Below, piece by piece: positions 27,860 through 55,966 of a DNA stretch of 64,000 bases. The translations under genes were made by a program, and so were the position numbers. The notes beneath the pieces are model-generated. The model saw only the letters and a list, made by a program, of their open reading frames with translations. It was not told the origin of the DNA and made no database searches. The first letter of the stretch is position 1; every line of letters begins with the position of its first letter. The stretch lies in the UHGV virus genome UHGV-0038492; one strand, written 5' to 3'. The DNA comes from a virus.

Positions 27860-28423
27860 GTGGCCACATCTTACGTACCTGATTTGAGTCTGACCTCAGC
27901 AGAGCTAGTGGTCGCTTTAATCAATCATGATAACGGGTTACAGCTTACACTAAACGAAATCCGTATTAGCGGAACTGTAACAAACCCATCCCCAACAACT
28001 TCGCGACGTAACACTATCACCGAAATCAGTAAAATCAGAAAACCAGATGGTGCGTCTGTTGTGGTTTACTACGACAGACTTGACGCCGATGAGGTATTAA
28101 CGTCCGAACCTATTTTGATTTCGTTAGACGGTACCGAAGCGAACATTCGTGATGTGCTTAGTGTTGTAAATGAATACTGCGGTACGAATTTACAACCTGA
28201 GGACTTACGTGCCTCAGATATTACTTCAGGTAATGATCCTATTGCTATTAACGTTGCTGACGATTCTCCTGCCTGGATGAATGCGTTTATGGTGACGTTG
28301 TTTGATAAAACCGAACGTGCGTTAGCGAACGAAGAAGATGAAATCTTCTGCATCGGTGACGATAGCGTTCTTACATTCGAGGTTACAGATGGCGACAGCA
28401 CTGAAGAAGACGAGACTCCATGA
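27860..28423 (+). CDS. fibre-associated small protein, family member 1
   Basis: GTG start after GGAGGG; homologous to ORF 38024 (PDLSLTS..., ...NLQPEDL); directly precedes a fibre gene. Confidence 0.65.
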   Translation: MATSYVPDLSLTSAELVVALINHDNGLQLTLNEIRISGTVTNPSPTTSRRNTITEISKIRKPDGASVVVYYDRLDADEVLTSEPILISLDGTEANIRDVLSVVNEYCGTNLQPEDLRASDITSGNDPIAINVADDSPAWMNAFMVTLFDKTERALANEEDEIFCIGDDSVLTFEVTDGDSTEEDETP

Positions 28424-28850
28424 GCTCGAAAGCTACGCAGGCACACCCCAAGGCGGGGTACTGCTGTATAGCAAAGACAATAAAGAATATAAAATTGATG
28501 TTGATAAGTTAGCCCCGGTTGCGACAGTCACCACGGTTAACGGTTCGAATAATGCCGCCACGTTGGATTTCAATACCAGCACTGACATTATTCTGGTGTT
28601 AAACGATCCTAACACTACAGTGACGTTCGCAGCCCTTACCAACGTTGCAGAAAATACCCGTTTCGAAGTAATGCTAACGATTAAGCAAGGAACAGGGGCG
28701 AATAAAGTAACCTGGCCTGAAAACGTTAAATGGCCTCACGGTGCACAACCGGTTTTATCCTACGCGGCAAATGCGGAAGACACTCTGTCGCTTTATACCC
28801 TTGATGGGGGTGCCACCTGGAAAGGTTCTCTTCTTGCAGCGGGTTACTAA
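28389..28850 (+). CDS. short tail-fibre-like protein with conserved N-terminal anchor motif
   Basis: Internal ATG at 28389 with GAGG RBS gives MATALKKTRLHELESYAGTPQGGVLLYSKD, homologous to the N-termini of ORFs 31938 and 38539. Confidence 0.6.
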   Translation: MATALKKTRLHELESYAGTPQGGVLLYSKDNKEYKIDVDKLAPVATVTTVNGSNNAATLDFNTSTDIILVLNDPNTTVTFAALTNVAENTRFEVMLTIKQGTGANKVTWPENVKWPHGAQPVLSYAANAEDTLSLYTLDGGATWKGSLLAAGY

Positions 28851-31800
28851 ATGAGAAAACATTTTCAGCGTCACGCGATTAGCTACGCGTTATCGTTAGC
28901 TTACGGACACCAATCCTTCGTTACCCGGAATACGGGAACGACTCACGACGCGCACAACGAACACTATATTCAAAACGAAGAAGGTGTTCTGTCGAATAAC
29001 CGTCATTTCATTGCTGACACTATGGCGGAATACCAACCGAACGGGGATGCGACGACCGAGGGTCAGTCGTTACACGTTATTGGTTACTGCCACATGTATA
29101 TCGCGACGAAAGACGAAAGATGGTTAGATGCGGCGAAACGTGCCTGGGATGCGTACAACACGTACTTCTACGTCGGACAACCTATTCCGACCACACCCCA
29201 GCGTCGTATTTGTAACTGGTTGGTAAACGGGAAAGAACCGGTATTAGCACATTATCCAATACATCCTACAGAACCTACCCAAGGTGGGTATAAAAGCGTT
29301 CCTGTAAGGTTTACAAACGGACAGTGTAAAATACCGCATGGTGCACCGTTCTGGGGAGAGTATTTGGATACCTTTACGTTTGCGCATCGTGGTCACCCTG
29401 CCTGGGAAGCCATTAACGCAGACGTACAGATTATCAAGGAAGACAAAGAAGGGTCAATTAATTGGGAAGATGTTTTAACTCACGTTATTACCAATCCTGA
29501 TAAACCCTACGAGGCCAAAGCGTGGGTTGATTGGCCTACGTTATTAAACAACGCTACAGGGTACACCCCGCTTTGGGGTGGGAGCGCAACAAAAGCCCCT
29601 AAACACGACGTTGACTGGATAATTGCCTGGACAGGTAACAAAATCCAGGACAGTGAGATTATTGAAACAGGATTAGCAGATGCTGATAAAGGTACCGTAC
29701 AGTTAAAAGACACGCAGTTAAACGGTGTCTATTTGATTAACTACGCGGTAAAACTGCCTGTCGAACACGGTGGTTACGAGTTTAAACGTAACGAACCGTG
29801 GCACAACCGTCCAGTTCACACGCCGTTCTTAGGATCGAAAAACCAATACGGTAACGCCGCTGATGCTGAACTGTGGTTTATTGACGCCTGTTATTTGCTG
29901 TGGCGAATCACGGGTGAAGAGAAATACAAACAAGCATTAGACTGTACTTTCTACACAGCACACGAGTACACGTATATTGATGCGGTAGATAAATTCTTCC
30001 GTCGTTCTACCGCTGCGGAAACACCGTTTACGGACGGCATTTCGTACGACTTCAATTACCCGGACACCGTAAGTGCTACATACGGCCGTGATGAGAATGG
30101 GGATATTACCATCCATGTGCCTGAAGCGGCACAACACTTTATGGAGCAGAAAGCGGTTCGATTCAGGATTAACAAAGACTCCAAACTACGTGTCACGTAC
30201 GGCGGGGTTTGTAAGAACGGCGATCCTGTCTACTGTAAAGCAATGGTAAACATTAACCCTGTGAAAGCTGATACCGAGGAAGTAAACTGGTACGGTTTAA
30301 CTTTACCTCGGTCTACGGTAAATACCGTTAAGCAGTACGATGTTGACTTAGGCCAACTTGCCCGTATTAGCACCCCAGAAGGGGAAGATTACCTGATAGC
30401 TGATGACCGTGCGTGTTCGGACTATGGTGGTTGTACGTGGGAAGAACGTTTTGAGGACAGCATTTACGACGGTCGCGCGGGTACCGTTATAGAAGCTGAA
30501 TTTCCTGATGACGGTGCCGGGTTTATTATCGGGTTCTGGTTAACCGCTGAAGAGAAGGTAAAACCGGTTTCTATTGTCTACCGTGCGGACGCAGATTTTA
30601 ACCTGCGTTTAGCTGACAGCGATAAGTGGCGTTGGTGGTGGATGTTACCCAACACAAACAACGAATGGCGTCAGGTAACGTTAAATCCGGATGATGCCAC
30701 ACTTTCCAGTTATCAGCCGGACCACACAGACGACGACCCTAAACCGGCAGCGCCGAATTTCGATAAGGTGGATCAGGTCACGATTCTCCCTGACTCTACG
30801 GTTGACCATGCGCACTTTGCTTACTATTGTGTTAACGATGTTCCACCGCTCTTTAATAAAGACGACGGTTATATTCTCACCTTCCGTATTGGGTTACGCG
30901 GCGGTGGAGAGTTTGATGCGAAGGTCGGCGACTGTACGATCAAAGATTACCGTTTGGATTCGTTAGCGTATTGTCCGGGTACGATACCGTTCTCGAACAA
31001 CTATTCAGAAGGTTCAGAACAGTTAGGTGCTTGGCACGGGATGCCTTATCCGGGTTATCAGTATCCGTTTATGTACACTATCCACAAAGACGACCGGTAT
31101 AAGCTGTGGTTAGATAACCAGATTCAATTCATGTACGATTCGCAGTTGGCTTACCAACGGCAGCTCGGTGAATTAGGGCCTGGTTGTGCAGCTTATATTT
31201 GGAACCGTTGGGACAACTACACCTACGGAGAAGCGGATACCTGGACAACGTTCCATTGGAGCGACGACCATCCGTGGCCAGGGTATCAACCTCGTGCGTT
31301 TCATGCTGCGTGTCGTTGCTGGTACGAACTGAAACTAAGAGGTAAAGAGGTTCCTGAAGCGTTAACAAGCTATATTGAAAACTGGGTGAATTGGCTAGGT
31401 GGGTTTGTGGATCGGTTTAACGGACACACCCCTAACGAGTTTCCTACAGCACCGAATAAACCCGTTTGGGTGGAAGATGACTTCAACGCACATATGTGTG
31501 CGTTGTGGTTAGCAGGCTGTTGTTGGGCATTACTCGCTGGTGCAACGAATCCGAACTACGATAAGGTAGTTAATGCGGCAATTAAGGAGTTAGGTGAAGG
31601 GTTTACGATTACCTCAATTCCGAATAAGCCGATTAACGGGGCGTGGTCTCCAGCCGCTCGAGAGTCTTCCGATAACGGTATGGCTTTTGGGTTCTACAGT
31701 GGGGAAGCGTTCCGTGCGTTAGGTCTCTACGTTACTTACAAAACTTACGGAGCCAACGCTAATATTTATCGTGACTTAGCGATTACTGACCACAGTCAAG

Positions 31801-31856
31801 CGGTTTTAGACGTTACGTTAACGATAGAAGACGATGCATTAAAACCAGAGCAATAA
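28851..31856 (+). CDS. large tail-associated protein, possible glycan hydrolase/depolymerase
   Basis: 1001-aa ORF between two fibre genes; Trp/Tyr/Asp-rich composition typical of carbohydrate-active enzymes; no motif-level proof. Confidence 0.7.
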   Translation: MRKHFQRHAISYALSLAYGHQSFVTRNTGTTHDAHNEHYIQNEEGVLSNNRHFIADTMAEYQPNGDATTEGQSLHVIGYCHMYIATKDERWLDAAKRAWDAYNTYFYVGQPIPTTPQRRICNWLVNGKEPVLAHYPIHPTEPTQGGYKSVPVRFTNGQCKIPHGAPFWGEYLDTFTFAHRGHPAWEAINADVQIIKEDKEGSINWEDVLTHVITNPDKPYEAKAWVDWPTLLNNATGYTPLWGGSATKAPKHDVDWIIAWTGNKIQDSEIIETGLADADKGTVQLKDTQLNGVYLINYAVKLPVEHGGYEFKRNEPWHNRPVHTPFLGSKNQYGNAADAELWFIDACYLLWRITGEEKYKQALDCTFYTAHEYTYIDAVDKFFRRSTAAETPFTDGISYDFNYPDTVSATYGRDENGDITIHVPEAAQHFMEQKAVRFRINKDSKLRVTYGGVCKNGDPVYCKAMVNINPVKADTEEVNWYGLTLPRSTVNTVKQYDVDLGQLARISTPEGEDYLIADDRACSDYGGCTWEERFEDSIYDGRAGTVIEAEFPDDGAGFIIGFWLTAEEKVKPVSIVYRADADFNLRLADSDKWRWWWMLPNTNNEWRQVTLNPDDATLSSYQPDHTDDDPKPAAPNFDKVDQVTILPDSTVDHAHFAYYCVNDVPPLFNKDDGYILTFRIGLRGGGEFDAKVGDCTIKDYRLDSLAYCPGTIPFSNNYSEGSEQLGAWHGMPYPGYQYPFMYTIHKDDRYKLWLDNQIQFMYDSQLAYQRQLGELGPGCAAYIWNRWDNYTYGEADTWTTFHWSDDHPWPGYQPRAFHAACRCWYELKLRGKEVPEALTSYIENWVNWLGGFVDRFNGHTPNEFPTAPNKPVWVEDDFNAHMCALWLAGCCWALLAGATNPNYDKVVNAAIKELGEGFTITSIPNKPINGAWSPAARESSDNGMAFGFYSGEAFRALGLYVTYKTYGANANIYRDLAITDHSQAVLDVTLTIEDDALKPEQ

Positions 31857-31880: not shown

Positions 31881-31905
31881 GGGGGGGGGGTAAGCTACTC
31901 CCCCC
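31881..31905 (+). other. G10...C6 homopolymer hairpin upstream of the long fibre gene
   Basis: GGGGGGGGGG TAAGCTACT CCCCCC about 35 nt before ATG 31938. Confidence 0.6.
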
Positions 31906-31937: not shown

Positions 31938-34900
31938 ATGGCAAAAGCGGTAAAGAAAATACGATTACATAATCTTAGACCATATACCGGTGATATCGGT
32001 GAAGGCGTTTTACTTTTCTCCAAGGATGAGAAAGATTATAAGTTACCAGTCCGTGAGATCATTGCGGATATTGACACCGTACGTAATGCGGTGGCTGAAG
32101 CACAGACAGCAGCAACACAATCACAAGAAGCTGCAACTCAGGCTACACAAGCAAAGAATTTAGCAGAAACAGCAAAACAACAAACTGACACCGTTGCAGC
32201 TACGGTTGCTCAACAAGCGCAAACTGTAACCGAAAAAGCAACTGAAGTCGGTACAAAACACACTGAAGTGTTAGCCGCGAAAACTGCGGTAGACGAAGTA
32301 TCAGTGTCGGTGAATGAGAAGGCTCAAGCTGTCGCCGCAAGCGAACAATCGGTGACGGCTGCTGCGGCTGATGTAACTAAGAAAGCAGAAACGGTTGCGC
32401 AACAGGCCGGACAAGTTCAACAGACGGCTACCAGCGTCGCAAATACTGCGGCATCAGTTGAGGCCAGTAAAGGTGCAGTGGAGAAAATTGCTGCGCAGGT
32501 CACGAAAGATAAAGAAACGTCGGAGGGCGCGGCTACCCGCTCAGAAGCGGCCGCACAACGTGCTGAGAAAATCGCCGCCCAAGGCTTAGTTGACGCTAGT
32601 ACGATCGGTAAAGGCATCGTTAAACTTAACGATACCCTGACTAGTGAATCCGTGACGGAGGCTGCCACGCCGTCCACGGTTAAACAGCTGAACGACGAAT
32701 TACAGTTAAAAGCCAATAAACATTCGCCGAATTTTACGGGTAAACCGACATCCCCAAAACCGCCGAAGGACTCGAATGACACGAGCATCTCCACAACGTC
32801 CTGGGTGCGTGACGCGATTGCTGAATTGGTTGGTTCCTCACCCGAGACGTTAAATACCTTAGCGGAATTAGCAGAGGCGTTAGGTAATGACCCTAACTTC
32901 GCAACAACGATCACTGAGGAGCTTGCGCAGAAGCAACCTATCAGCCCATTACTCACCGCAATCGCTGCGGTTACAAGTGCAGCAAACAAACTCCTGTATT
33001 TCACGGGCTCTAATAAAGTCGAGTTAACCGATTTTACAGAAACTGCCAGATCCTTGTTAGCGAAAGGGTCAACTGCGGATATTATTAACTTCCTGGGTTT
33101 GAAACCCACCGTTGATAAAGCAAACGGCGCACTACAGAAAAACTCTAACGGTGCTGATATCCCAAATAAAGAAACTTTTGCTCGCAACATCGGCCTATCT
33201 CCTGATACCTATCTGCGTTTCCGTGGCAAAATGCCTGTAGATGCTGATATTAACACATTTGCTCCAGATGCTAATTACACAGGAACGTGGTCTAAGTCGA
33301 CATCAACCAATGCGTCGATGGCAAAACACTTCCCAGAAGACGGTGCAGTCGGTTATCTGGAAGTGTATAAAGCGGGCAACTACAGTGGCGCGCAACGTTT
33401 TACCTGTCGTAATGGTAACGTGTACAACCGTATGTTGTCAGCCGCGTGGAACGGAACTAATGGCCCGTGGTCGCCGTGGAGAATGGTAACTACCGGTGTA
33501 CGCCCGTTATCTACATCGATTGATCTGAACTCTTTAGGCGGTGCCGAACACATGGGTAACTGGCGTAACTCGTCCAGTTCGTTAGCGGTGTTTGACAGAC
33601 ATTATCCTGAAGAGGGCGGTGGCGCTCAAGGTGTTCTGGAAGTCATGGAAGGTGGTCTTTACGGACGGTTGCAGCGATACACTACGCGTCGTGGCACAAT
33701 GTATGTCCGTGGTTTGACTGCAACATGGGATTCATCAAACCCACAATGGGAAGATTGGATTCAGGTTGGTTATCAGACTGACGGTGCTTTCTTTAAAGCC
33801 AATTTTAACGATCTCGTTAAACCGGGTCGTTTCAGTGTCACTGGTCAGGCAACTAACGGCCCACTTACCGGTTCTTCTGGCGAAACCATATTAGGCGTTT
33901 GTGAAGTTACCTTACGCTTAGACGGTACAGGGGTCGAACAGAATTATACCACATACGGCACGGGTGCAGAAACTAAAGGTCGTAAATTCCAACGTATCCG
34001 TACGGGTAACATTTGGAGCGATTGGCGTGAGGTTTTCACATCCTATTCGCTTCCGTTGGCCTTAGGTATCGGTGGGGTTGCTGCCAAGGTCGATCCGTTA
34101 GACTGGCAAACCTTCGACTTCGTTCCTGGCCAGATGATAAGCACACCGTTGAATACCATGAAAAACATTCCTGCGGGAATGGATTGGGGTGTTATTGACG
34201 GTAACTTGGTCACTATTCTTGTAGGGGCGTCGGAGGACACCGGTACTGGTCGGAGTATGTTGGTCTGGCGTGGTACAGTGTCTACTGCTAACTATCGCTT
34301 CTTTGCAGTACGTATCGCCGGTGAGAAGGGTAGCCGTACGATTACGCCACGACAGATGCCTGTGTTAAATGCAGCACACACTTGGGCCGAGAAACAAACG
34401 TTCTCTAAAGGCTTAGCGGGTGAATTGACAGGTAATGCGTCAACGGCAACGAAACTGAAAACAGCCCGTTTAATCGGTGGTGTAAGTTTCGACGGCACTA
34501 GCGACATTCCACTCCCTGGTGTTAACCAGCAAGGTAATCAAAACACCACTGGGAACGCGGGAACCGCAACCAAATTACAAACGGCTCGAAACATCAACGG
34601 TGTGAAATTCGATGGCTCTAGAGACATCAATATCAACACCTTGGTAGGACGTGGACGTGTTACTGCACTGACGGGATCAAACAAAGGTACGCCTGGTATT
34701 CAGATGTACGAAGTTTACAATAACGGTTATCCGACCGCTTATGGTAACTTATTGCATTTGGGTGGTGCTACTGCGCTAGGCGAAGGCGAGTTGTTAATCG
34801 GATGGTCGGGGACGAGTGGTGCGCACGCGCCAGTTTATATTCGTAGCCGACGTGATACGGCTGACGCGCCGTGGTCAGATTGGGCACAAGTTTATACTGC

Positions 34901-36497
34901 CCGTGACAGCATTCCTGGCGTAAATGCCACAGGTAATCAAGATACTACCGGCAATGCCGCTACCGCGACGAAACTGAAAACCGCTCGCAGAATTGGAGGC
35001 GTTACCTTTGACGGTACTGGGGATATCAATTTACCGGGGGTTAACCAAGCCGGTAACCAGAATACGTCAGGTAATGCTGCGACAGCGACTAAACTTCAGA
35101 CTGCGCGAAATATAGGCGGTGTGGCTTTTGATGGTACTAAAGACATCAGTTTACCTGGTGTAAACCAGACGGGTAATCAGTCGACTACCGGAAACGCAGC
35201 CACGGCCACAAAGTTGCAGACAGCTCGTACCATTAACGGTATCCCATTTGACGGCACTAGAAATATATCGTTAGGGCCTGCCGATATAGGTTGCCCGGCA
35301 TCACCTAGTGGTTGGTTAGAAACTGGCGCTGATGGCGCTGCAATAACTACAGCACAGCTAGTGACGTTATTGAAAAATAACGGCGCGTTTACCACAAGAT
35401 CGTGGGTTGCTCGCTGCGCATGGGCTTATGCCGCTAGTGCAAGTATACCTCATAGCGAGACGGGTTGTGGTGTTATTCCATTAGCTGGGGCTGTTATAGA
35501 AGTGATTAGTAACGGCAACAGCACAAACAACTACACGATCCGTATAACGACCGCCACAACGACGAGCGTCTCCGGCGCACTCACTAATGCGGAGTTTATC
35601 TACGTATTTAACGGCGATACTTACTCACCAGGTTGGCGTCGCGTGTACAATACGAGAAACAAGCCAACTGCTGCGGATGTTGGGGCGTTGCCATTATCTG
35701 GCGGTCAGTTGAATGGCGCGTTGGGTATTGGAACCACTAATGCTTTAGGTGGGAACTCCATAGTTTTAGGGGATAATGACACCGGCCTTAAGCAGAACGG
35801 GGATGGCGTTCTAGATGTTTACGCCAATAATGCTCATGTTTTACGCTTTACGAGTGGGGCTGTTCAAAGCAATAAACCTCTCAACGTTACCGGAGATATA
35901 AGAACCAATACTTGGGTTTATGCAAATAGATATTCTATTAACAGCAACTCAGGTTCTTGGATTAGCATGAGAGACCATAACGTTATTTTTGGTCTTAATC
36001 CGGTAGGAACTAGTTCTGCTCAGGCATTGTTAAGACAAGACCATGCTGATAGGAAATTTTTTGTTGGTGGTTTAGGTAACTATCAATTCGGCTTTTACAT
36101 GATAAACAACTCACGTACTGATAATGGCACCGATGCTAATGCTTATTTGCAAAACGACGGTACTTGGGTTTGTGGTGGGAACGGTAACTTTAACGACGTT
36201 TATATACGATCTGACGCCCGGCTGAAAAGTAATTTCTCTCCAATAACTAATGCATTGGAGAAGGTAAAGGAATTGTCAGGTTTAATATACGACAAAAAGG
36301 AGAACTTTAAATCCACTAATGTTCATCGTGAGGCTGGTGTTGTAGCGCAGACCTTACAAAAAGTGTTACCTGAAGCAGTTTCTACTTATAAAGACGCTAA
36401 TGGTGAGGACGTTTTGACGGTCTCTAACTCTGCACAAATAGCTCTACTTATTGAAGCAATAAAGGAGTTGGCGGAGATAATTGAGACCAAGTTATAA
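31938..36497 (+). CDS. long tail fibre protein with C-terminal intramolecular chaperone (peptidase S74-like) domain
   Basis: 1519 aa; conserved N-terminal anchor; Ala/Gln/Thr-rich helical stretch; four knob-like repeats ending W-x-x-W; five copies of the TGNAATATKLQTAR...FDG fibre repeat; C-terminal SDARLKSN motif of endosialidase/T5-fibre-type self-cleaving chaperones. Confidence 0.9.
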   Translation: MAKAVKKIRLHNLRPYTGDIGEGVLLFSKDEKDYKLPVREIIADIDTVRNAVAEAQTAATQSQEAATQATQAKNLAETAKQQTDTVAATVAQQAQTVTEKATEVGTKHTEVLAAKTAVDEVSVSVNEKAQAVAASEQSVTAAAADVTKKAETVAQQAGQVQQTATSVANTAASVEASKGAVEKIAAQVTKDKETSEGAATRSEAAAQRAEKIAAQGLVDASTIGKGIVKLNDTLTSESVTEAATPSTVKQLNDELQLKANKHSPNFTGKPTSPKPPKDSNDTSISTTSWVRDAIAELVGSSPETLNTLAELAEALGNDPNFATTITEELAQKQPISPLLTAIAAVTSAANKLLYFTGSNKVELTDFTETARSLLAKGSTADIINFLGLKPTVDKANGALQKNSNGADIPNKETFARNIGLSPDTYLRFRGKMPVDADINTFAPDANYTGTWSKSTSTNASMAKHFPEDGAVGYLEVYKAGNYSGAQRFTCRNGNVYNRMLSAAWNGTNGPWSPWRMVTTGVRPLSTSIDLNSLGGAEHMGNWRNSSSSLAVFDRHYPEEGGGAQGVLEVMEGGLYGRLQRYTTRRGTMYVRGLTATWDSSNPQWEDWIQVGYQTDGAFFKANFNDLVKPGRFSVTGQATNGPLTGSSGETILGVCEVTLRLDGTGVEQNYTTYGTGAETKGRKFQRIRTGNIWSDWREVFTSYSLPLALGIGGVAAKVDPLDWQTFDFVPGQMISTPLNTMKNIPAGMDWGVIDGNLVTILVGASEDTGTGRSMLVWRGTVSTANYRFFAVRIAGEKGSRTITPRQMPVLNAAHTWAEKQTFSKGLAGELTGNASTATKLKTARLIGGVSFDGTSDIPLPGVNQQGNQNTTGNAGTATKLQTARNINGVKFDGSRDININTLVGRGRVTALTGSNKGTPGIQMYEVYNNGYPTAYGNLLHLGGATALGEGELLIGWSGTSGAHAPVYIRSRRDTADAPWSDWAQVYTARDSIPGVNATGNQDTTGNAATATKLKTARRIGGVTFDGTGDINLPGVNQAGNQNTSGNAATATKLQTARNIGGVAFDGTKDISLPGVNQTGNQSTTGNAATATKLQTARTINGIPFDGTRNISLGPADIGCPASPSGWLETGADGAAITTAQLVTLLKNNGAFTTRSWVARCAWAYAASASIPHSETGCGVIPLAGAVIEVISNGNSTNNYTIRITTATTTSVSGALTNAEFIYVFNGDTYSPGWRRVYNTRNKPTAADVGALPLSGGQLNGALGIGTTNALGGNSIVLGDNDTGLKQNGDGVLDVYANNAHVLRFTSGAVQSNKPLNVTGDIRTNTWVYANRYSINSNSGSWISMRDHNVIFGLNPVGTSSAQALLRQDHADRKFFVGGLGNYQFGFYMINNSRTDNGTDANAYLQNDGTWVCGGNGNFNDVYIRSDARLKSNFSPITNALEKVKELSGLIYDKKENFKSTNVHREAGVVAQTLQKVLPEAVSTYKDANGEDVLTVSNSAQIALLIEAIKELAEIIETKL
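34428..35272 (+). repeat. in-frame tandem tail-fibre repeats (about 38 aa each), five copies interrupted by one knob-like domain
   Basis: Protein-level repeats GNQNTTGNAGTATKLQTARNINGVKFDGSRDI and variants; nucleotide copies are diverged. Confidence 0.8.
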
Positions 36498-36501
36498 TTA
36501 T

Positions 36502-36524
36502 CAGTGAGGGGTTCCCCCTCACTG
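36502..36524 (+). terminator. hairpin after the long fibre gene (no T-run)
   Basis: CAGTGAGGGG-TT-CCCCTCACTG perfect palindrome directly after the stop codon. Confidence 0.4.
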
Positions 36525-36544
36525 ACTCACAAGTACGTTATAAG

Positions 36545-37336
36545 GTGGTTATTTTGTCTGTATCAGCGACTCCCGGATGGATTGGTTCTTCAGCAAAAGC
36601 TGAAGCTGGTAATGGTTGGATGTCTGGCGCGATGCACACACTCGGTGTGCCAGTTCCAGGCTGGATGTCGCAATTGGCGGGAAAATCAAAAGAGGCTCAG
36701 TATTCGATCGGGGCTAATCACAATTACAATAAAGATACGCTTATTAACTATTTACGTTCCATAGGCTCTACTGCTGTCGTTGTGACCATTACAGGGGATT
36801 TAGTGTCTTATAGTAGCGGGGTTCCTTGTTTAGAGTTCCCTAGCAATCTTCCAAATTCGTATATTACCCTCATCATCAATCCTGGGGTTACAGTATACGG
36901 CAGAGGAGGCAACGGCGGTTCTAACTCACCAGGCGGTGCAGGTGGAACCGCAATACAGAACGGAATAGGAAACAGACTGCGTATAACCAACCGTGGCGCT
37001 ATTGCCGGAGGCGGTGGCGGCGGTGGCGGCGGTAACAGGGGTAGACTAATATTTGGTGGTGGCGGTGGTCGCCCATTCGGTGCTGGTGGGTCTTCCTCTC
37101 ATATGAGTTCCGGTGCGGCTGCTGGTACTATTTCCGCTCCTGGTAGAGGATCTGTTGGTGAGGGGTCTCTTAGTGCATATACAGGCGGTTCGGGTGGTAA
37201 TGTCGGTGCTGGTGGAGGAAGATGTAATACTCATGGTAACGGTACAGAATATAACGGCGGAGCAGCTGGTGCAGCTGTTACTGGTAATGCGCCAAGATGG
37301 GACGCAGTAGGTGCAATATACGGTTCACGTGTTTAA
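36545..37336 (+). CDS. glycine-rich fibre-associated protein
   Basis: 263 aa; run of nine Gly encoded by (GGN)9 and overall Gly/Ala/Ser-rich C-terminal part; N-terminus homologous to next ORF; start may be GTG 36545 or TTG 36554. Confidence 0.65.
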   Translation: MVILSVSATPGWIGSSAKAEAGNGWMSGAMHTLGVPVPGWMSQLAGKSKEAQYSIGANHNYNKDTLINYLRSIGSTAVVVTITGDLVSYSSGVPCLEFPSNLPNSYITLIINPGVTVYGRGGNGGSNSPGGAGGTAIQNGIGNRLRITNRGAIAGGGGGGGGGNRGRLIFGGGGGRPFGAGGSSSHMSSGAAAGTISAPGRGSVGEGSLSAYTGGSGGNVGAGGGRCNTHGNGTEYNGGAAGAAVTGNAPRWDAVGAIYGSRV

Positions 37337-37352: not shown

Positions 37353-37865
37353 ATGGGGGTAGCGTCAGGATGGGTCGGATCTTCAGCTAAGAATGAAACT
37401 GGCCAACAATGGATGAGCGCTGCGGGTAGTAAATTAGGATTGGGTAGACCTTTTATGATGAGCCAAATGGTAGGCAAGTCCGTAGGTTGCAAAATAGCAA
37501 CAGCTTATTATAAAACGTCAAATACTGATAAAGTAGAGAACTGGGGTGCTGTCGGAGCCGATTGGCCGTTGGTAGATAAGAACAAAGGAACGCTTTCTGG
37601 TGCCTCGAACTGTGGCTTAGGACGTTTAGTGGGGATCGTACTTACGCAAGCTCACTACATTTCTGGTGTTCCACCCACTGCGGCTTTATACATCGCAGGA
37701 GGAAGGGCAAGTAATATTACAGTAACAGTTGGTGGTGTTTCGCAAGCATTTACTTACGATAGTGTTATTAACGGTTTTCACTATTATTGGCAAGGAACGC
37801 CTAGTTCGGCCTTTATAGCGGCAATGAAGAAGACGGGTGTTACACAAGATTTGAAAGTTAGCTAA
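37353..37865 (+). CDS. paralog of the Gly-rich protein N-terminal domain
   Basis: AAAGGAGGG RBS; MGVASGWVGSSAKNETGQQWMSAAG aligns with SVSATPGWIGSSAKAEAGNGWMSGA of the upstream ORF. Confidence 0.65.
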   Translation: MGVASGWVGSSAKNETGQQWMSAAGSKLGLGRPFMMSQMVGKSVGCKIATAYYKTSNTDKVENWGAVGADWPLVDKNKGTLSGASNCGLGRLVGIVLTQAHYISGVPPTAALYIAGGRASNITVTVGGVSQAFTYDSVINGFHYYWQGTPSSAFIAAMKKTGVTQDLKVS

Positions 37866-38023: not shown

Positions 38024-38536
38024 GTGGAACAATTCACGCCAGATTTGTCGTTAACTTCACTTAACATGGTTATTTCACTGGTTAACCATGACCTCCAGCT
38101 TGACTTGCAAGAGAACGAGGTTGAAGTCAGCGACGTAAAGACCAGTAACGAAATGGATCGTGACACCACTGCTGTTGTAAAGATAAAACGTCCCGGTAAC
38201 AGAACGTTACAAATCTATTACAACCGTTTAACCGCAGAACGTTGGTTAAACCAGCAACCTATTCTGGTGCAAGTAACTGGAGAGGGGTTTAACACACACG
38301 ATTTAATCGATGCGATTAACGCAGCCTGTGGTAGTAACCTGCAACCCGAAGATCTTCAGGACGATTCATTTACAGTAGGAAAAGACGCTGTAACGTTACA
38401 GGTATCACCTAACTCCCTAAGTTATAAAGGCCAATTCTCTGTTTTGGTTTTTGGTAACGGCGAAGAGGCCGCAGTAACAAAAGATGACAACCTAATCGTT
38501 ACCGCAGATAATCGCGTCTTAACCTTTGGAGGTTAA
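38024..38536 (+). CDS. fibre-associated small protein, family member 2
   Basis: GTG start after AGGAGG; homologous to ORF 27860; precedes a fibre gene. Confidence 0.65.
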   Translation: MEQFTPDLSLTSLNMVISLVNHDLQLDLQENEVEVSDVKTSNEMDRDTTAVVKIKRPGNRTLQIYYNRLTAERWLNQQPILVQVTGEGFNTHDLIDAINAACGSNLQPEDLQDDSFTVGKDAVTLQVSPNSLSYKGQFSVLVFGNGEEAAVTKDDNLIVTADNRVLTFGG

Positions 38537-38538
38537 CA

Positions 38539-39159
38539 GTGGCTGAACTGGTAGGAAAGGTACGCATTCACGAGCTACCGTCACTTTCAGAAGACATTAC
38601 TGGTGTGGTGGTGTTAGCGTCTAAGGAACAAACCGAATACCAACTCCCGATTGAGAATTTAGGGGGTGGTGAGGTTACAGTGAGTCCGTCAGCGAATAAC
38701 ATCCTTAAGTCTAACAGCGATGGACTGTTTGTTGATGGCGCACATCCTATTGTACCGAAAATGGATGCAAAAACCTTATCGGGAAATATGGTGGTAGAAA
38801 AAACGCTGACAGGTGGTGCGGTAATCTGCAAAACAACGGTTGACGTTAATAATAGGCTGGGGATTTCGCAATTATCTGGGGTGTCAATTTATAGCCAGTG
38901 CCTGCTGGAAAATAAATTGGTTTACCTGGCAGAAGACGGCAGTATTATTGATGCGTACTTCTACATTAGTAATACAAAGAACACGGCCAGTACAATAACC
39001 CACACCATTCGGGTTGTCTTAGCGAAAGTACCTTCTAAAGTTGTCGATATCACCGATTTATCTGAAACTGAGGTGCAGTATCAGGATGCTAATTTGCCTG
39101 TTAAGATCGTTATTAAGCATCTTACAGGGACAACACTTTCCCAGAACGGAATGAAATAA
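38539..39159 (+). CDS. short tail-fibre-like protein with conserved N-terminal anchor motif
   Basis: GTG start after GGAGG; N-terminus MAELVGKVRIHELPSLSEDITGVVVLASKEQTEYQL homologous to ORFs 28389 and 31938; terminator downstream. Confidence 0.65.
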   Translation: MAELVGKVRIHELPSLSEDITGVVVLASKEQTEYQLPIENLGGGEVTVSPSANNILKSNSDGLFVDGAHPIVPKMDAKTLSGNMVVEKTLTGGAVICKTTVDVNNRLGISQLSGVSIYSQCLLENKLVYLAEDGSIIDAYFYISNTKNTASTITHTIRVVLAKVPSKVVDITDLSETEVQYQDANLPVKIVIKHLTGTTLSQNGMK

Positions 39160-47325: not shown

Positions 47326-48174
47326 ATGTCTCTTACGTCAAAACAGAAACTGCTAAAACTCATCAACACTGAAAACAATATTATTCCACCGTTGACTTTC
47401 AGTGATGTTGAAATCGGGGAACCTACCGGTACTGGGGTTGATACCCAGGTGGTTCTGACCTCTAAACTTAAAGGCGATGAGTCTACTACTTTAACAGTGA
47501 CTTACCACCGTCGTAACTTACCTGACTACCTAACCGGTGAGTTGGTATTCGGTAACGACAGTGTGGTAACCGCATCAGATTTGCTTAATGCGATTAACGC
47601 AAAATACAACCTAAATATTTTACCCTCGGATATCGTTGACGCAAAAGTTGAAGGCGAAACCCATCAGCTTACCGCTAACGAGAAATCTTACGAGTGGTGC
47701 GGTGTAGTAACGCTTACGCTGCGCGATCCTATTGACCTGACTGAACTGTTACCGGTTACTCAATTAGAGAATCTGGTAGAGTATCCGTCCACGAAGAAAG
47801 GTAACGCGGCGGTTTATTCTCACCCGATTGATTTCACCGCAGAAAAAGATTACCTTGACCCGATTACTATCAACGACGCTGTAGACTTGGTAGAATTAGC
47901 TACTAAACTGGATAGCGTCGTTGACGAGAAATGGGTAAGCGTACCTAAGAACGCGGCTAACAACCTGTACGGAGCGAAGATTATTTACGATGGTCCAACC
48001 GCAGGTTACGAAGGCGCAAATACGAAGTTCACTCGTGTGTTGGTGCTAACACTCAGCCCGCTGTGTTCTAACCTGACCGGTAACCTGTTAATTCACTTTA
48101 ACGGGACCGATCGTCCGAAGTCGAAGATTGAATTAGCACAGACTAATCCGGTCTTACCGGGATTCTTAGATTAA
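47326..48174 (+). CDS. hypothetical protein, fibre-associated small-protein family (extended)
   Basis: 282 aa; contains SDLLNAINAKYNLNILPSDI matching the family motif. Confidence 0.65.
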   Translation: MSLTSKQKLLKLINTENNIIPPLTFSDVEIGEPTGTGVDTQVVLTSKLKGDESTTLTVTYHRRNLPDYLTGELVFGNDSVVTASDLLNAINAKYNLNILPSDIVDAKVEGETHQLTANEKSYEWCGVVTLTLRDPIDLTELLPVTQLENLVEYPSTKKGNAAVYSHPIDFTAEKDYLDPITINDAVDLVELATKLDSVVDEKWVSVPKNAANNLYGAKIIYDGPTAGYEGANTKFTRVLVLTLSPLCSNLTGNLLIHFNGTDRPKSKIELAQTNPVLPGFLD

Positions 48175-48187
48175 GAGGATTACAGTA

Positions 48188-48667
48188 ATGGCCAATCAAG
48201 AAACTATCTTCGACCTTATTAAAAAGGCTAACCCGGACGCTGAGTTCGACACCACCAAAGTCACACTGGGTGAACCGGTTGTGACCACCGGTACTTACAA
48301 TACCGAAATTACGGTTGCGTCGATTAAGAATCTCGGTTATGTTAATAAGCAAACGTTCCAGTATAACCGCATTGACGCAGGTTTGTATTTCCTGAACGTA
48401 TTACCGAAATTGTTGGTAGAATCTGCAACGACTACCGCTGACTTACTGCCCGTCATTAACGAGCAGTACAGCCTAACCCTTACAGAAGACGACGTGTGGG
48501 TAGAACAGGTTGGTGAGTTACCGTTAGACGGTAGCGCAATCGAACACGGTATTTTCTTCCGTCCTGAGTGTCTGACCTGGGTTGGTGGTTTTACAGTGCG
48601 TGTTGCGCGTAAACCGGCTGACGCCACACCGCCAAAGACGGCGTCTCGCGCTAAAAAGAAAAAATAA
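48188..48667 (+). CDS. hypothetical protein, same family
   Basis: 159 aa; ADLLPVINEQYSLTLTEDDV motif; Lys-rich C-terminus; terminator downstream. Confidence 0.6.
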   Translation: MANQETIFDLIKKANPDAEFDTTKVTLGEPVVTTGTYNTEITVASIKNLGYVNKQTFQYNRIDAGLYFLNVLPKLLVESATTTADLLPVINEQYSLTLTEDDVWVEQVGELPLDGSAIEHGIFFRPECLTWVGGFTVRVARKPADATPPKTASRAKKKK

Positions 48668-52554: not shown

Positions 52555-53226
52555 TTACAGCCCTTGCTCTAATGCAAACGCTTTAATTGAATCGTAATCA
52601 CGGGCTTCGGCCCAAGCTCTGACTTCTTTTTTCTGTTCCGTCATTGCCTGATGCAGTTGCTGGTCGCGTTGCACAATAGCACCCAGCAGTGTTTTGCACT
52701 GCTCTAACGTAAACGGTTCGATACGGGTGTTGTTGGCCGTTAACCAATACGCTGGCGCGGTTTCTGACTGAATATAACGACTCAGTGCTACCTGTGACTT
52801 CTCATCTGCCTGGAAAGTGAAATCACCCACTTGAATCTCGGCATACCGCGCATCCTGATAACGGAATTCCAATGCGCTTAGGATTTTCTGAACATCGGTA
52901 AAGATATACCGCACAGTGGAGCGTAAACCCGTACGAATCTCTTCCAGGTCAATTCCCAACGTGTCGTTAACAAAGTCTTTCGCTTTCTGTAACGTAAATC
53001 GTGCTTCGATTTCAGACATGTCGTAGTTACGCATTTGTTCCAATGCTTCACGATCGGACATCCCATCAATCAATTTATAGTGCAGTAACGCACAAAAACC
53101 CGTACGACCATGATCTTCGCTACCGATTTTTTCCATATAGTTACCATGGCGGTCAATCGGTAAATCGTGCTCAAAATAACGACGACGGATTTCTTCTTTC
53201 GTTAAGCCTTCACCAGTAGCAGACAT
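52555..53226 (-). CDS. hypothetical protein, last gene of the fibre/radical-SAM operon
   Basis: 223-aa ORF overlapping the upstream gene by 25 nt; terminator downstream. Confidence 0.6.
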   Translation of the reverse strand: MSATGEGLTKEEIRRRYFEHDLPIDRHGNYMEKIGSEDHGRTGFCALLHYKLIDGMSDREALEQMRNYDMSEIEARFTLQKAKDFVNDTLGIDLEEIRTGLRSTVRYIFTDVQKILSALEFRYQDARYAEIQVGDFTFQADEKSQVALSRYIQSETAPAYWLTANNTRIEPFTLEQCKTLLGAIVQRDQQLHQAMTEQKKEVRAWAEARDYDSIKAFALEQGL

Positions 53227-53774
53227 TCATCGTCTCCTTTAATCAATCCTAATTCGATTAACAGTTCAAAATCGATATGACGGAATCTTGTATCAAAATC
53301 CGATTCCCAATCGATGCGGATACCCTGGCACTCTTCTGATGTTAGCTCGGGAAAAATTACGGTATTAAATTTCTCACGCTCATCGTAAAACCCATCAATC
53401 GGTGAGTTCGGGTTACGCGTTGCGAAAATAGTAATACCAGGGAAAGATAATGCTAACACAGTGATAGATTCTGCGCTGGGCTCACTTAAAGAGCGGCGTA
53501 GAAACGCAATTTTGTGGCGTGGGAAGTCCAATACGCGTTCTTCAAACCCTGGATTACGTTTTTCGATTTCCGCTACCGACAGGTCAGTAAGTTCGGTGCA
53601 ATACATTGGGATGATTACAGTCACGCCGTGGCGAATCAGTAAACGTTTTACGTCATCGGTAAAATCTTCGCCGTTAATCATCACGTAACAACCGAACAGC
53701 TTACTGTTTTCCAGAAACTTATCCAGAAGTCGAATTCTACGCTTCGTAATATTGTTGATCAGAATTGGTTTCAT
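53202..53774 (-). CDS. hypothetical protein co-operonic with radical-SAM enzymes
   Basis: 190-aa ORF overlapping both neighbours. Confidence 0.6.
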   Translation of the reverse strand: MKPILINNITKRRIRLLDKFLENSKLFGCYVMINGEDFTDDVKRLLIRHGVTVIIPMYCTELTDLSVAEIEKRNPGFEERVLDFPRHKIAFLRRSLSEPSAESITVLALSFPGITIFATRNPNSPIDGFYDEREKFNTVIFPELTSEECQGIRIDWESDFDTRFRHIDFELLIELGLIKGDDECLLLVKA

Positions 53775-55059
53775 CTTTGGCTTCTCTTAATAATTTTTCC
53801 TTTTGGGCGCGTTCACGAACACAGCGTGGGCAATAACACATACTCGTGTCGTGGAACGCTTTTGCTGACGTCGTACCCATCTTCTGTTTCCAGTATTCCG
53901 CCACCATCAGTTTCGCTGTCGTCCACCCGCACTGACGTCGCTCAGCGTGATACGCTTTACGGTCTTCCAGTGTCCCTTCACCGTTTTCGTAAGAAGCCGC
54001 AGCGCAGCTACCACAAGCGTGTTTCATCGGACAACCTAAGCACGTCTCTGGATAGTTGGTATATTGTGTTTGAATCTCTTCTAACAATTTACCGTTGTCC
54101 AGGCTGACGAATTCCCGACCTACCAACTCAAATACCGCAGAACGTGATGTTACGGTTGACATAAAGCGATTGCAACCGAAGATCTTACGGTCAAAACCTA
54201 AACACGTCATGTGTGTTAATGTCCCACAGAACGGACGTAAACGTTCTGGGTTCAACCGCACCGTGTCATTATAAAGTAATTGATCACGCCAGTTCGGTTC
54301 CCAAATCGTATCGAAATCCAACCCTTCTGGGATGATGTGCGATAAGATATTACGTGGGTTGGTGTGTAATCCTTTCTCGACCCAATAATCAATCACATCC
54401 ATCATCTGCAATGCAATTGAAGTAGCCATCCCACGTGGCATAATGTCTTCGAAGGTTACGTTGCCGGAGATAGTTCCGCCACCAGTAATATCAATTAATG
54501 ACTTCATTCCGGCAGCATAGTACGGTAACGTTTCTAACGTAAAGGTCGCCTTTACGCCAAGCTCTGCAATGCCAACCTCTTTTAAGTAGTTATAGCCTCG
54601 TACTGCGGCTTCGTAAGAACCCTGGCGCGTCGTTGTAAAGATACGATAACGGTCATGGGACTCAGGTAAGCCGTCAATTGAAACCCCAACCGAAAGTTTG
54701 TCTTTCCAACGCTCTACGATCTCACGGTTCAACGGGCGATCTAACAACGTCCCGTTTGTGGAAATACTAAACATAAACGGCCGATTATGTTCTTTACACA
54801 ACTGCTCGGCGGTTTCAAATGCAGCCAGCAGCAACTTAGGCTGCATGAACGGTTCACCACCGATAATGTCAATAATAACTTCAACATTCGGTTCGTTTTT
54901 ATCGCGTTCAAAACAGGCGTGCAAGAAATCAACAATATCTGCCGCTTTGTTGTTACGCGGGTACTTACGTTCGTAACAATATTCGCAGTCCAGGTTACAC
55001 GAAAGGTTCGTTACAATCTGATACGTTAGCTGCTTAGGGAATTCATTTACCTGACTCAT
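53737..55059 (-). CDS. radical SAM enzyme with C-terminal SPASM-like Cys cluster (anSME/peptide-maturase-like)
   Basis: N-terminal CNLDCEYC (CxxxCxxC), GGEPFM SAM-binding motif, and C-terminal cysteines (CLGCPMKHACGSC...CYCPRC) typical of auxiliary Fe-S clusters. Confidence 0.75.
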   Translation of the reverse strand: MSQVNEFPKQLTYQIVTNLSCNLDCEYCYERKYPRNNKAADIVDFLHACFERDKNEPNVEVIIDIIGGEPFMQPKLLLAAFETAEQLCKEHNRPFMFSISTNGTLLDRPLNREIVERWKDKLSVGVSIDGLPESHDRYRIFTTTRQGSYEAAVRGYNYLKEVGIAELGVKATFTLETLPYYAAGMKSLIDITGGGTISGNVTFEDIMPRGMATSIALQMMDVIDYWVEKGLHTNPRNILSHIIPEGLDFDTIWEPNWRDQLLYNDTVRLNPERLRPFCGTLTHMTCLGFDRKIFGCNRFMSTVTSRSAVFELVGREFVSLDNGKLLEEIQTQYTNYPETCLGCPMKHACGSCAAASYENGEGTLEDRKAYHAERRQCGWTTAKLMVAEYWKQKMGTTSAKAFHDTSMCYCPRCVRERAQKEKLLREAKDETNSDQQYYEA

Positions 55060-55966
55060 TTGCCGCCCCTCTATTACGACCTGCCATCACTACGCGACGA
55101 ATATATTCGTACGCCTCTACACCGATAGAGAAGGCCAGTTGGTTACACCCGGATTCCAGTACGTTAGGTGCGTTCTGGAGCTGGTGCTCACCACCGTCTG
55201 CATTAATCCAGAGACTTTCGCTGCAAACGTTACACCCTTCTTCAAACACTTTACTTACCGTAAAACCACATTCACGACTGTTTACTACATTCAGTCGTTC
55301 AATGTTGTCCTGAACCCGATAGTAGCCGTAAATAAAGTTCATGACGTGGTCAGGTGATAAAGGCTTTGGCATTTTCGCATCTAAGAGTAACGTCATTGCT
55401 CGGAAACCGTAATGGTAAATCGCGCTGTGCAGCTGAATAATATCTTCATGCCAACGTTTATCCCCCAAACGGTCCCGTGTCAAGACACCCCAAGTCTGGA
55501 CATTATCCAGCTCGTAGATCGTTTCCAGTGCTTCGTAACAGCCTTCGTCAATAAAGCGCATAAATGGACGCTCAGACGACTTAAACCCATCGATGCTAAC
55601 GTAGACATTGTCAAACTGTTTTAGCAACGGGAGATGCGATTTACGCATCTTTAAGCCATTGGTATACAACTGGTGTTTGAGTTCTGGACGAATCACTTTT
55701 AATTCGTCAACAAACGCCTCAATTTTACGGGTTGCCAATAGTGGCTCACCACCCGTCCACTGAATTTCGGTAATGGTTGGATTAGCTTCCAGCGCTTCCA
55801 AAATTCGCTCACGTTGAAACTCTCGCGGAGAATCTTCACGATTCATGTAATAGGCTCCACCGCAGAAGCTACAATCCAGGTTACACTTGGACGTAGCGAC
55901 TACGGACAATACGGTGGGTTTATCGTATAAACGATTCGATAACCTTGGTTCTGCATTGGTTGTCAT
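55043..55966 (-). CDS. radical SAM enzyme, paralog of the 440-aa enzyme
   Basis: CNLDCSFC and GGEPLL motifs; C-terminal Cys pairs (CGFTVSKVFEEGCNVC...GC); overlaps downstream gene by 17 nt. Confidence 0.75.
   Translation of the reverse strand: MTTNAEPRLSNRLYDKPTVLSVVATSKCNLDCSFCGGAYYMNREDSPREFQRERILEALEANPTITEIQWTGGEPLLATRKIEAFVDELKVIRPELKHQLYTNGLKMRKSHLPLLKQFDNVYVSIDGFKSSERPFMRFIDEGCYEALETIYELDNVQTWGVLTRDRLGDKRWHEDIIQLHSAIYHYGFRAMTLLLDAKMPKPLSPDHVMNFIYGYYRVQDNIERLNVVNSRECGFTVSKVFEEGCNVCSESLWINADGGEHQLQNAPNVLESGCNQLAFSIGVEAYEYIRRVVMAGRNRGAANESGK

Follow-up and report, generated by a model that had tools for sequence, protein, structure and literature searches.

The subject of this analysis is a tail fibre locus in the virus genome UHGV-0038492, of which a stretch of 64,000 nucleotides (the window) was analysed. 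An open reading frame (ORF) at 31938-36497 on the plus strand encodes a long tail fibre of 1519 residues, and it is followed by two small genes for adhesins of the gp38 type. By analogy with characterised systems, we think it likely that the fibre serves as a shaft that would be cut by its own C-terminal Peptidase_S74 chaperone, with the resulting tip capped by the downstream adhesins, which would recognise the receptor. The two adhesin genes were overlooked in a preliminary description of the fibre made from its sequence, and they change its functional reading: since two adhesins lie downstream, removal of the chaperone would be expected to expose a docking surface for an adhesin, not a receptor-binding tip. 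The source is a 'Seoul-like' (SPN3US/Asesino-related) jumbo phage, and the fibre is its mosaic long tail fibre. The features of the locus are as follows.

31938-36497, plus strand: long tail fibre gene, an ORF with an ATG start, 1519 residues, precursor of 160.7 kDa.
31938-32072, plus strand: N-terminal anchor, residues 1-45, a lineage-specific, putative baseplate-attachment module common to the genes starting at 28389 and 38539.
32070-32582, plus strand: heptad coiled coil, residues 45-215, rich in Ala/Thr/Val/Gln, assigned from composition and periodicity.
32610-32981, plus strand: Phage_fiber_2 repeat (residues 225-261; Pfam PF03406, E=6.9e-9) and the conserved collar-type motif SPETLNTLAELAEALGNDPNFATT (residues ~278-348).
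33210-34037, plus strand: three tandem, putative pyocin-type knobs, residues 425-518, 519-611 and 612-700, each with a terminal W-x-x-W-x-x-V.
34107-34409, plus strand: fourth β-rich domain, residues 724-824, P2 gpH-like, from an AlphaFold 2 model and blastp matches to P2-like H and T4-like gp37.
34410-34649, plus strand: fibre repeats R1-R2, residues 825-904, 40 residues each, TATKLxTAR...FDG, from a motif scan.
34650-34928, plus strand: knob 4, inside the repeat array, residues 905-997, with its Trp motif at residue 979.
34929-35288, plus strand: fibre repeats R3-R5, residues 998-1117, from a motif scan.
35289-35705, plus strand: globular distal domain, residues 1118-1256, Mu S'-like, ending in GWRRVYN, with a match to the solved Mu S/S' chimera 8JU3 (residues 207-335).
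35706-36209, plus strand: distal shaft and tip, residues 1257-1424, Mu S / SSU5_021 / S16 gp37-like, with the putative docking strand NGNFNDVYIR last.
36210-36494, plus strand: intramolecular chaperone (Peptidase_S74), residues 1425-1519, 10.4 kDa, from Pfam and structure-chain alignments.
36545-37336, plus strand: adhesin 1, a T2/T6/S16-type gp38 with an attachment domain and a Gly-rich, hypervariable receptor-binding domain.
37353-37865, plus strand: adhesin 2, with a Gp38_N attachment domain (residues 1-43) and a different β-rich domain of ~125 residues.

Pfam places Peptidase_S74 (PF13884) at residues 1425-1481, at the extreme C-terminus of the fibre (E=6.8e-15, 55.6 bits against a cut-off of 22). 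The sequence SDARLK begins at residue 1425, nucleotide 36210, and the fibre here reads NFNDVYIR^SDARLKSN, where the caret marks the predicted cut. The C-terminal 115 residues align with the chaperone of S16 gp37 (6F45_A, SDRRIK), with the 8JOV fibre (SDERLK) and with the auto-cleaving domain of MYRF (7DC3), and Ser1425 and Lys1430 fall on the catalytic dyad positions of all three. The preliminary description had assigned SDARLKSN to a chaperone of the S74 type and had held that a C-terminus lacking the Ser/Lys pair on alignment would speak against this; the pair is present. The S-D-x-R-x-K signature is kept in 120 of 120 orthologues, and the ratio of non-synonymous to synonymous substitution rates (dN/dS) in the chaperone is 0.096. 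S16 gp37 is cut at DLNVS^SDRRIKK, and T4-like fPS phages have DVYIR^SDGRLKI, in which the DVYIR strands form the flat tip that receives the gp38 tryptophans (PMC7917993). Because the window junction NDVYIR^SDARLK matches these published junctions, a cut is predicted directly before codon 36210-36212, at the bond between Arg1424 and Ser1425 (nucleotides 36209 and 36210), which agrees with the earlier proposal of autoproteolysis near 36210-36215. The predicted products are of 150.3 kDa (residues 1-1424) and 10.4 kDa (residues 1425-1519). The tip NG(N/S)FNDVYIR^SD is also found in T4-like gp37, in SSU5_021 and in CMS-2020a, and the Shiga toxin (Stx) phage P8983 has NGSFNDVQIR^SD; the motif is common to four other adhesin-capped fibres, each followed by one Gp38_N adhesin gene, as in P8983.

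The assignment of adhesin 1 is clear from several sources. It matches Pfam GP38 (PF05268) over the full profile (1-218/218, E=6e-69) as well as Gp38_N (PF21721, E=2e-11), it matches the solved S16 gp38 (6F45_D, E=7.5e-50) and also PP01 gp38, and it is 75-80% identical to gp38 of RB49, JSE and CMS-2020a. Its real start is probably the TTG at 36554, behind the ribosome-binding site AAGGTGG. The differences between adhesin 1 and its Salmonella-associated orthologue lie in hypervariable segments between conserved glycine-rich motifs. Relatives of adhesin 1, the polyglycine adhesins of the T6/S16 type, bind outer-membrane proteins. Adhesin 2 has a Gp38_N domain (PF21721, E=1.8e-20), with an N-terminus that matches S16 gp38, and has no PF05268 domain; NCBIfam gave no match for either adhesin. 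The relatives of adhesin 2 are found in a CMS-2020a phage-plasmid (85% identity), Stx phage P8983 (66%), SSU5 (SSU5_022, 31%) and T4-like phages of Klebsiella and Enterobacter (32-39%), so that it is of the SSU5_022/Stx-phage type, and within this family the N-terminal 41 residues are nearly invariant while the remainder is variable. AlphaFold models the C-terminal domain as a β sandwich (predicted local distance difference test (pLDDT) score 70-92), for which no convincing match was seen among solved folds. The attachment domain is modelled as disordered, as is expected for a docking peptide that is modelled alone.

The genomic setting ties both adhesins to the fibre. In a complete relative of 221,873 bp searched by tblastn, there is one chaperone-bearing fibre and there are exactly two Gp38_N genes, both directly after the fibre; with the fibre as query, this genome of ~222 kb yields no second fibre-like gene. 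The adhesin pair is kept in four of the five orthologous loci (L005, L006, L007 and L009), which come from E. coli, Salmonella and metagenomic sources, and adhesin 2 is 94-97% identical across orthologous loci. Another related locus, L008 (10509-12408), has a shorter fibre of 1436 residues with the same tip, followed by an adhesin 2-type gene, a 273-residue anchor-bearing protein and a DUF4376 protein, which from its gene content is a putative alternative receptor-binding cassette. A single adhesin gene follows the fibre in all comparators, namely SSU5, two CMS-2020a elements, a T4-like phage and P8983. When a phage database was queried with adhesin 2, matches were found at 493 places in 493 records, and for adhesin 1 there were 694 matching places, spread over 690 records, so that two genes of this kind can be present in no more than four phage records. 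The literature searched, whose coverage was partial, held neither a report of jumbo phages with gp38-type adhesins nor one of such adhesins in pairs; this is a weak negative.

The mechanism that we propose follows the paradigm of a chaperone-cleaved fibre with a gp38 adhesin, as established for S16 and T2/T6 (PMC7917993; bioRxiv 10.64898/2026.05.12.724579). Three chains would be fixed to the baseplate through the lineage-specific anchor of ~45 residues, and would extend as a coiled coil, pyocin-type knobs, 40-residue β-helical repeats and a Mu S-like distal shaft. By homology, the 95-residue S74 chaperone would drive trimerisation by nucleating the folding of the distal β-helix from the C-terminus. 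Chaperones of the K1F/T5 pb1 type are released after trimerisation. In the same manner as in S16/T2 gp37, K1F endosialidase and T5 pb1, Ser1425 and Lys1430 would then cut between Arg1424 and Ser1425, and the chaperone would be lost. Cleavage would leave a flat tip of three ...NFNDVYIR strands as the docking surface for a Trp-bearing gp38 attachment domain, so that each fibre would receive a single monomer, of adhesin 1 or of adhesin 2, as its cap, and this cap would recognise the receptor. To the more specific proposal that both adhesins compete for one tip site, and that virions carry fibres with two unrelated receptor-binding domains, we give slightly less than even weight. If this is true, the phage would have a built-in dual specificity without invertible segments or duplicated fibres, which could help the lineage to occupy Escherichia, Shigella, Salmonella and Enterobacter, and ...NFNDVYIR^SD would be a universal splice point that moves adhesin cassettes among the fibres of myo-, sipho-, podo- and jumbo-viruses.

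Other readings of the locus deserve consideration. S74 chaperones often lie directly behind a receptor-binding or enzymatic domain, and on this ground the fibre could itself be the receptor-binding protein, as are T5 pb1 and K1F, with the small downstream genes irrelevant or acting as assembly factors; within the chain, variation is highest and constraint lowest in the Mu S'-like domain at residues 1118-1256, as would be the case for a binding surface. We nevertheless judge this improbable. Two Gp38_N genes follow the fibre, and the complete relative genome offers them no other possible partner. Furthermore, the tip strand NFNDVYIR is shared by otherwise unrelated fibres, each of which has a Gp38_N adhesin gene after it, and the variation of adhesin 1 between relatives from different hosts is confined to its hypervariable segments. 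A more serious alternative, though still an unlikely one, is that the fibre uses one adhesin alone, the other being a spare or decaying recombination cassette or serving another structure. Every comparator phage has a single adhesin after its fibre, the relative L008 carries the adhesin 2 type alone, and in adhesin 2 the third of the Trp residues conserved in S16 gp38 is replaced by Met. Yet both genes are intact, the pair is retained in most orthologous loci with adhesin 2 highly conserved, the attachment domain is the most conserved part of adhesin 2, and the 222-kb relative has no other chaperone-bearing fibre on which a second adhesin could be used. It would be extremely improbable, finally, for the fibre gene to be an inactive relic on a plasmid-like element, as might be thought because records of bacterial genomes list the element as a circular 'plasmid'. 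More than 100 relatives keep the ORF intact, its dN/dS is 0.12 over the full length with no segment reaching 0.25, and the element has a full SPN3US-like structural gene set and belongs to a lineage that is persistent yet virion-forming (bioRxiv 10.1101/2024.12.31.630880).

We therefore retain the reading of a cleaved, adhesin-capped shaft as the likely one, although some points count against it. Cleavage, docking and all the mechanistic steps are carried over from homologous systems. The shaft above the tip is Mu S-like and not S16-like, and the docking region differs from that of the solved complex save for the last ~13 residues. The missing third Trp of adhesin 2 weighs in the same direction, and the variable Mu S'-like domain might take part in binding as well.

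The architecture of the fibre was largely as the preliminary description had it, namely a mosaic, repeat-rich long tail fibre. Motif scans, Pfam and PHROG all bear this out, with 61 PHROG tail-fibre families matching different parts of the protein, and there are more than 100 orthologues with identities of 83-100%. The conserved anchor named there recurs in the first ~45 residues of the proteins from the genes starting at 28389 and 38539. The Ala/Gln/Thr-rich helical tract corresponds to residues 45-215, which contain 27% Ala and no Pro and have a hydrophobic period of exactly 3.5 residues, with a periodicity power of 147 compared to 23+-11 in shuffled sequences (a value reached by 0 of 500 shuffles). 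On account of this period, the tract is taken as a canonical heptad coiled coil; it gives weak matches to Rad50/SMC coiled coils, and the NCBIfam matches for the fibre are all sub-threshold. The collar-type region matches the solved tail-collar/fibre chains 9D93 and 6V8I, and the distal shaft and tip match the solved Mu S 5YVQ (residues 320-447) and S16 gp37 6F45_A. An antisense ORF at 32417-33190 on the minus strand (257 residues) lies wholly within the coding region of the Ala-rich coiled coil; it was rejected as a gene for want of any support, and is most likely a compositional artefact.

A claim of four knob-like repeats of ~75 residues, each ending in W-x-x-W-x-x-V, stood only in part. 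A direct motif scan finds W-x-x-W-x-x-V at residues 511, 604, 693 and 979, against 0.026 occurrences expected per composition-preserving shuffle, and the domains do appear knob-like, but their period is ~90 residues. An AlphaFold 2 model of residues 425-830, from an alignment of 41 sequences (mean pLDDT 81), consists of three β domains of ~90 residues followed by a fourth domain. Foldseek relates this model to the R2/R1 pyocin fibres 6CL6/6CL5 (E ~3e-6, probability 1.00) with TM-scores of only 0.23-0.25, values that are low because a single multi-domain chain of what would be a trimer was modelled. NCBI names the homologues of the knobs 'pyocin knob domain-containing', and no Pfam knob model matched the window fibre at E<=1. 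In sequence, knobs 1 and 2 are clearly homologous (z=28), while for knobs 3 and 4 the similarity hardly goes further than the Trp motif at their ends (z 1.5-3.6). Knob 3, knob 4, residues 724-824 and residues 1122-1246 were all tried as sequence homologues of knobs 1 and 2, and were rejected as their similarity is marginal or absent. The description of four repeats thus appears valid at the level of motif and fold, not of sequence.

The five TATKLxTAR repeats and the position of one knob among them were reported correctly: the motif occurs at residues 836, 876, 1009, 1049 and 1089, in a 40-residue register that is broken between repeats 2 and 3 by the knob at residues ~905-997. The further suggestion that this knob was inserted recently, by a domain shuffle, finds some appeal in the way that it interrupts an otherwise regular array, and in one orthologue, P0103 (1386 residues), that has the array uninterrupted. 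We consider it very improbable, and the claim does not hold up on comparison. Of 120 orthologues, 119 have the knob at the boundary between the second and third repeats, where it is 95-99% identical and among the best-conserved segments (dN/dS 0.07). The same order, repeat-repeat-knob-repeat-repeat, is seen in a P1-like S fibre that is 65% identical over residues 762-1262, and SSU5_021 has a repeat followed by a knob. The five repeats share only 47-69% nucleotide identity with each other, and Tandem Repeats Finder reported no DNA-level repeat that matches the 40-residue units; recent duplication of the repeats is rejected on this basis, and the five are old. P0103, the sole orthologue without the knob, contains a hybrid unit in which the opening of repeat 2 (QGNQNTTGNA) runs on into repeat 3 sequence (ATATKLKTARRIGGVTFDG...), which points to a 133-residue deletion by recombination between repeats and not to an ancestral state. 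The number of repeats 3' of the knob varies from 2 to 4 among orthologues. The array is recombinogenic, and the position of the knob within it is old.

The remainder of the fibre is also composed of parts with different affinities. The matches by segment were the following, from BLASTP against reference fibres or from searches of solved structures.

Residues 120-419: P1-like S, 37% identity (BLASTP).
Residues 388-859: P2-like gpH, 63% identity (BLASTP).
Residues 417-823: T4-like gp37, 52% identity (BLASTP).
Residues 762-1262: P1-like S, 65% identity (BLASTP).
Residues 826-987: SSU5_021, 74% identity (BLASTP).
Residues 1122-1256: Mu S' (PDB 8JU3), solved-structure search.
Residues 1302-1430: Mu S (PDB 5YVQ), solved-structure search.
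Residues 1255-1515: SSU5_021, 63% identity (BLASTP).
Residues 1349-1516: T4-like gp37, 45% identity (BLASTP).

No single phage record covers more than 51% of the fibre. As far as sequence comparison can tell, the fibre would be a scaffold recombined from modules of P1, P2, Mu, T-even and SSU5-like phage-plasmid type on a jumbo-phage anchor. Synonymous divergence between the window fibre and its Salmonella-associated orthologue ranges from 0.05 to 2.0 by segment. This unevenness indicates continuing recombination, with frequent segmental replacement among otherwise close relatives. Between window 31938-36497 and L006 10001-14554, the value is 0.05 in the chaperone, 1.3 in R1-R2 and 2.0 in residues 216-424, a 40-fold spread. 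The dN/dS values already given, which come from the comparison with the Salmonella-associated orthologue, show purifying selection along the entire gene; the Mu S'-like domain at residues 1118-1256 is again the most variable part, with identity dipping to 0.79-0.87 and the highest dN/dS (0.23). We also see that homology to the solved Mu S (residues ~440-447) stops exactly at the predicted cleavage site (window 36195-36230, residues 1420-1431), where Mu has ...YVR-DVRLG and the fibre has ...YIR^SDARLK. The cleavage junction looks like a shared recombination joint, of which Mu may preserve a relic.

Among known systems, the closest parallel in design is the gp37-gp38 pair of S16 and T2/T6 (PDB 6F45). 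Both have a C-terminal S74 chaperone with an S-D-x-R-x-K dyad, a cleavage junction beside a short tip strand and no receptor-binding domain after the chaperone in the fibre, and both are followed by a gene for a monomeric adhesin with a Trp-bearing attachment domain and, in the case of adhesin 1, a polyglycine, hypervariable receptor-binding domain. The window system differs in that its shaft before the tip is Mu S-like, in having two adhesins of different classes where S16 has one, and in belonging to a jumbo phage of the nucleus-forming type, not to Straboviridae. In particular, the fibre is a single chain of 1519 residues with its own anchor, not the distal subunit of a gp34-gp35-gp36-gp37 assembly, and as a single chain with a jumbo-phage anchor it is not a Straboviridae gp37. 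The K1F endosialidase and T5 pb1 share the Pfam family (PF13884), the dyad and the C-terminal position of the chaperone, but their mature C-terminus is enzymatic or receptor-binding, whereas that of the window fibre is predicted to be a docking strand.

In sequence, the closest relatives of the distal third of the fibre are SSU5_021/SSU5_022 and the SSU5-like phage-plasmids of E. coli (CMS-2020a, ~110 kb). They share the tip NGSFNDVYIR^SD, parts of them are 81-84% identical to the window in nucleotide sequence, adhesin 1 is 80% identical to its counterpart in CP053388 and adhesin 2 is 85% identical to that in CP054387. However, these elements have one adhesin each, of either type, their fibres have unrelated N-terminal halves and anchors, and their virions are of a different type. 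The fibres P1 S, Mu S/S' and P2 gpH resemble the window fibre in the knob triplet (63%, P2-like H) and in the R-R-knob-R-R order with the Mu S'-like domain (65%, P1-like S), and Mu S resembles it in the distal shaft (Mu S residues 320-447). Unlike the window fibre with its S74 chaperone, those fibres end in a receptor-binding domain that is folded by a separate Tfa/U chaperone; a Tfa-type partner (DUF4376) was looked for, and the genes downstream of the window fibre are instead Gp38_N adhesins. R-type pyocin fibres (6CL5, 6CL6) have knob-type β domains strung along the fibre, to which those of the window fibre may correspond, but sequence identity is 14-16%, and they end in a lectin-like foot where the window fibre has a chaperone.

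The placement of the element among Seoul-like phages follows from its other genes. The 1001-residue tail protein encoded upstream of the fibre (28851-31856) is 77% identical to gp141 of Erwinia phage Asesino and 72% identical to gp124 of SPN3US; neither Asesino nor SPN3US has a fibre gene at the syntenic position. In a megablast search of 50,697 phage records, the fibre gene had no match, and the 22 kb upstream of it had a single weak match, to Asesino. Exact-sequence look-ups of the window fibre protein and of P0001 returned nothing on record. Assemblies of Shigella and Salmonella isolates contain more than 100 orthologous fibres, on contigs of 220-226 kb, and the same element is on record in E. 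coli 98232 (221,873 bp) and in Enterobacter ludwigii (222,441 bp), in both cases as a circular 'plasmid'. The window is ~93% identical over 58 kb to the circular element of E. coli 98232 (L009, L014-L018, NZ_CP173450.1); the comparison also took in NZ_CP134650.1. The deposited 'plasmid' annotation consists almost entirely of hypothetical proteins, although the structural genes are SPN3US/Asesino-like. The element fits the persistent, virion-forming 'Seoul-like persistent jumbo phages', described from 299 genomes of which 84% came from bacterial assemblies, with Salmonella predominating (bioRxiv 10.1101/2024.12.31.630880).

Two other proteins in the window share the N-terminal ~45 residues of the fibre, and the same is seen in related loci.

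28389-28850, plus strand: 153-residue protein with the fibre-type N-terminal anchor, directly 5' of the gene for the 1001-residue tail protein (28851-31856).
38539-39159, plus strand: 206-residue protein, the third anchor-bearing tail protein, with the shared N-terminal anchor.

Among the 50,697 phage records, the anchor motif occurs in SPN3US/Asesino-like jumbo phages only, once in each, in a small protein before the tail protein. NCBIfam has no match for the anchor proteins. Conservation of the anchor (residues 1-45) among fibre orthologues is 98%. As the anchor is limited to this lineage, we infer that in the fibre, modules acquired from elsewhere have been joined to a baseplate anchor that belongs to the lineage itself.

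These findings extend the T-even-type system of chaperone-cleaved fibre and gp38 adhesin to a jumbo phage of the Chimalliviridae type, and they reveal a recent exchange of tip cassettes with ~110-kb SSU5-like phage-plasmids in the same hosts. The determinant of host range in this widespread, clinically co-isolated lineage is probably the two small downstream genes, not the 1519-residue fibre, and in deposited records one of these genes carries the label 'hypothetical protein'. Should both adhesins be in use, they would provide a compact route to dual receptor specificity, which bears on the persistence of the lineage in isolates of several genera. For fibre engineering, the conserved DVYIR^SD junction suggests itself as a site for swaps. 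What is noteworthy here is the pairing of adhesins and the exchange of cassettes across morphotypes; the fibre is otherwise an ordinary mosaic of known modules.

Some further observations concern the surroundings of the fibre gene. GC-rich inverted repeats without T-runs lie on both sides of it, at ~31883-31905 and 36502-36525; the upstream repeat is G10...C6, and the downstream repeat, directly after the stop codon, is CAGTGAGGGG-TT-CCCCTCACTG. These may be phage-specific terminators or RNA-processing sites. A scan for sigma-70 promoters and terminators was uninformative, as the counts were no higher than the shuffle expectation; jumbo phages transcribe with polymerases of their own.

Close relatives differ in how many anchor-bearing tail proteins they have, as the 206-residue anchor gene (38539-39159) is absent from the E. 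coli 98232 relative (L009/L014), where the alignment has a gap at 38536-39125. The window also contains paralogous genes for a DUF7941 'virion structural protein' at 27860-28423, 38024-38536, 47326-48174 and 48188-48667. Of the anchor-bearing genes, those at 28389 and 38539 each have a DUF7941 gene before them, and the fibre gene itself directly follows one in L005 and L008, which suggests a repeated cassette of a DUF7941 adaptor plus an anchor-bearing fibre. In these two metagenomic relatives (L005, 5763-5840; L008, 5761-5838), there are no genes for the 153-residue or 1001-residue proteins between DUF7941 and the fibre, and a 26-residue anchor remnant of the 153-residue protein is all that remains there. 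The conserved 1001-residue 'tail protein' may be dispensable or relocated in some relatives.

Elsewhere in the window, a DUF4376 (Tfa-like) gene is found at 52555-53226 on the minus strand, with an adjacent ORF of 190 residues. These two adjoin the genes for two radical SAM enzymes, at 53737-55059 and 55043-55966 (the whole region being 52555-55966, minus strand). Compared with the E. coli relative, no part of the window has diverged more than the radical SAM segment, at 75% nucleotide identity.

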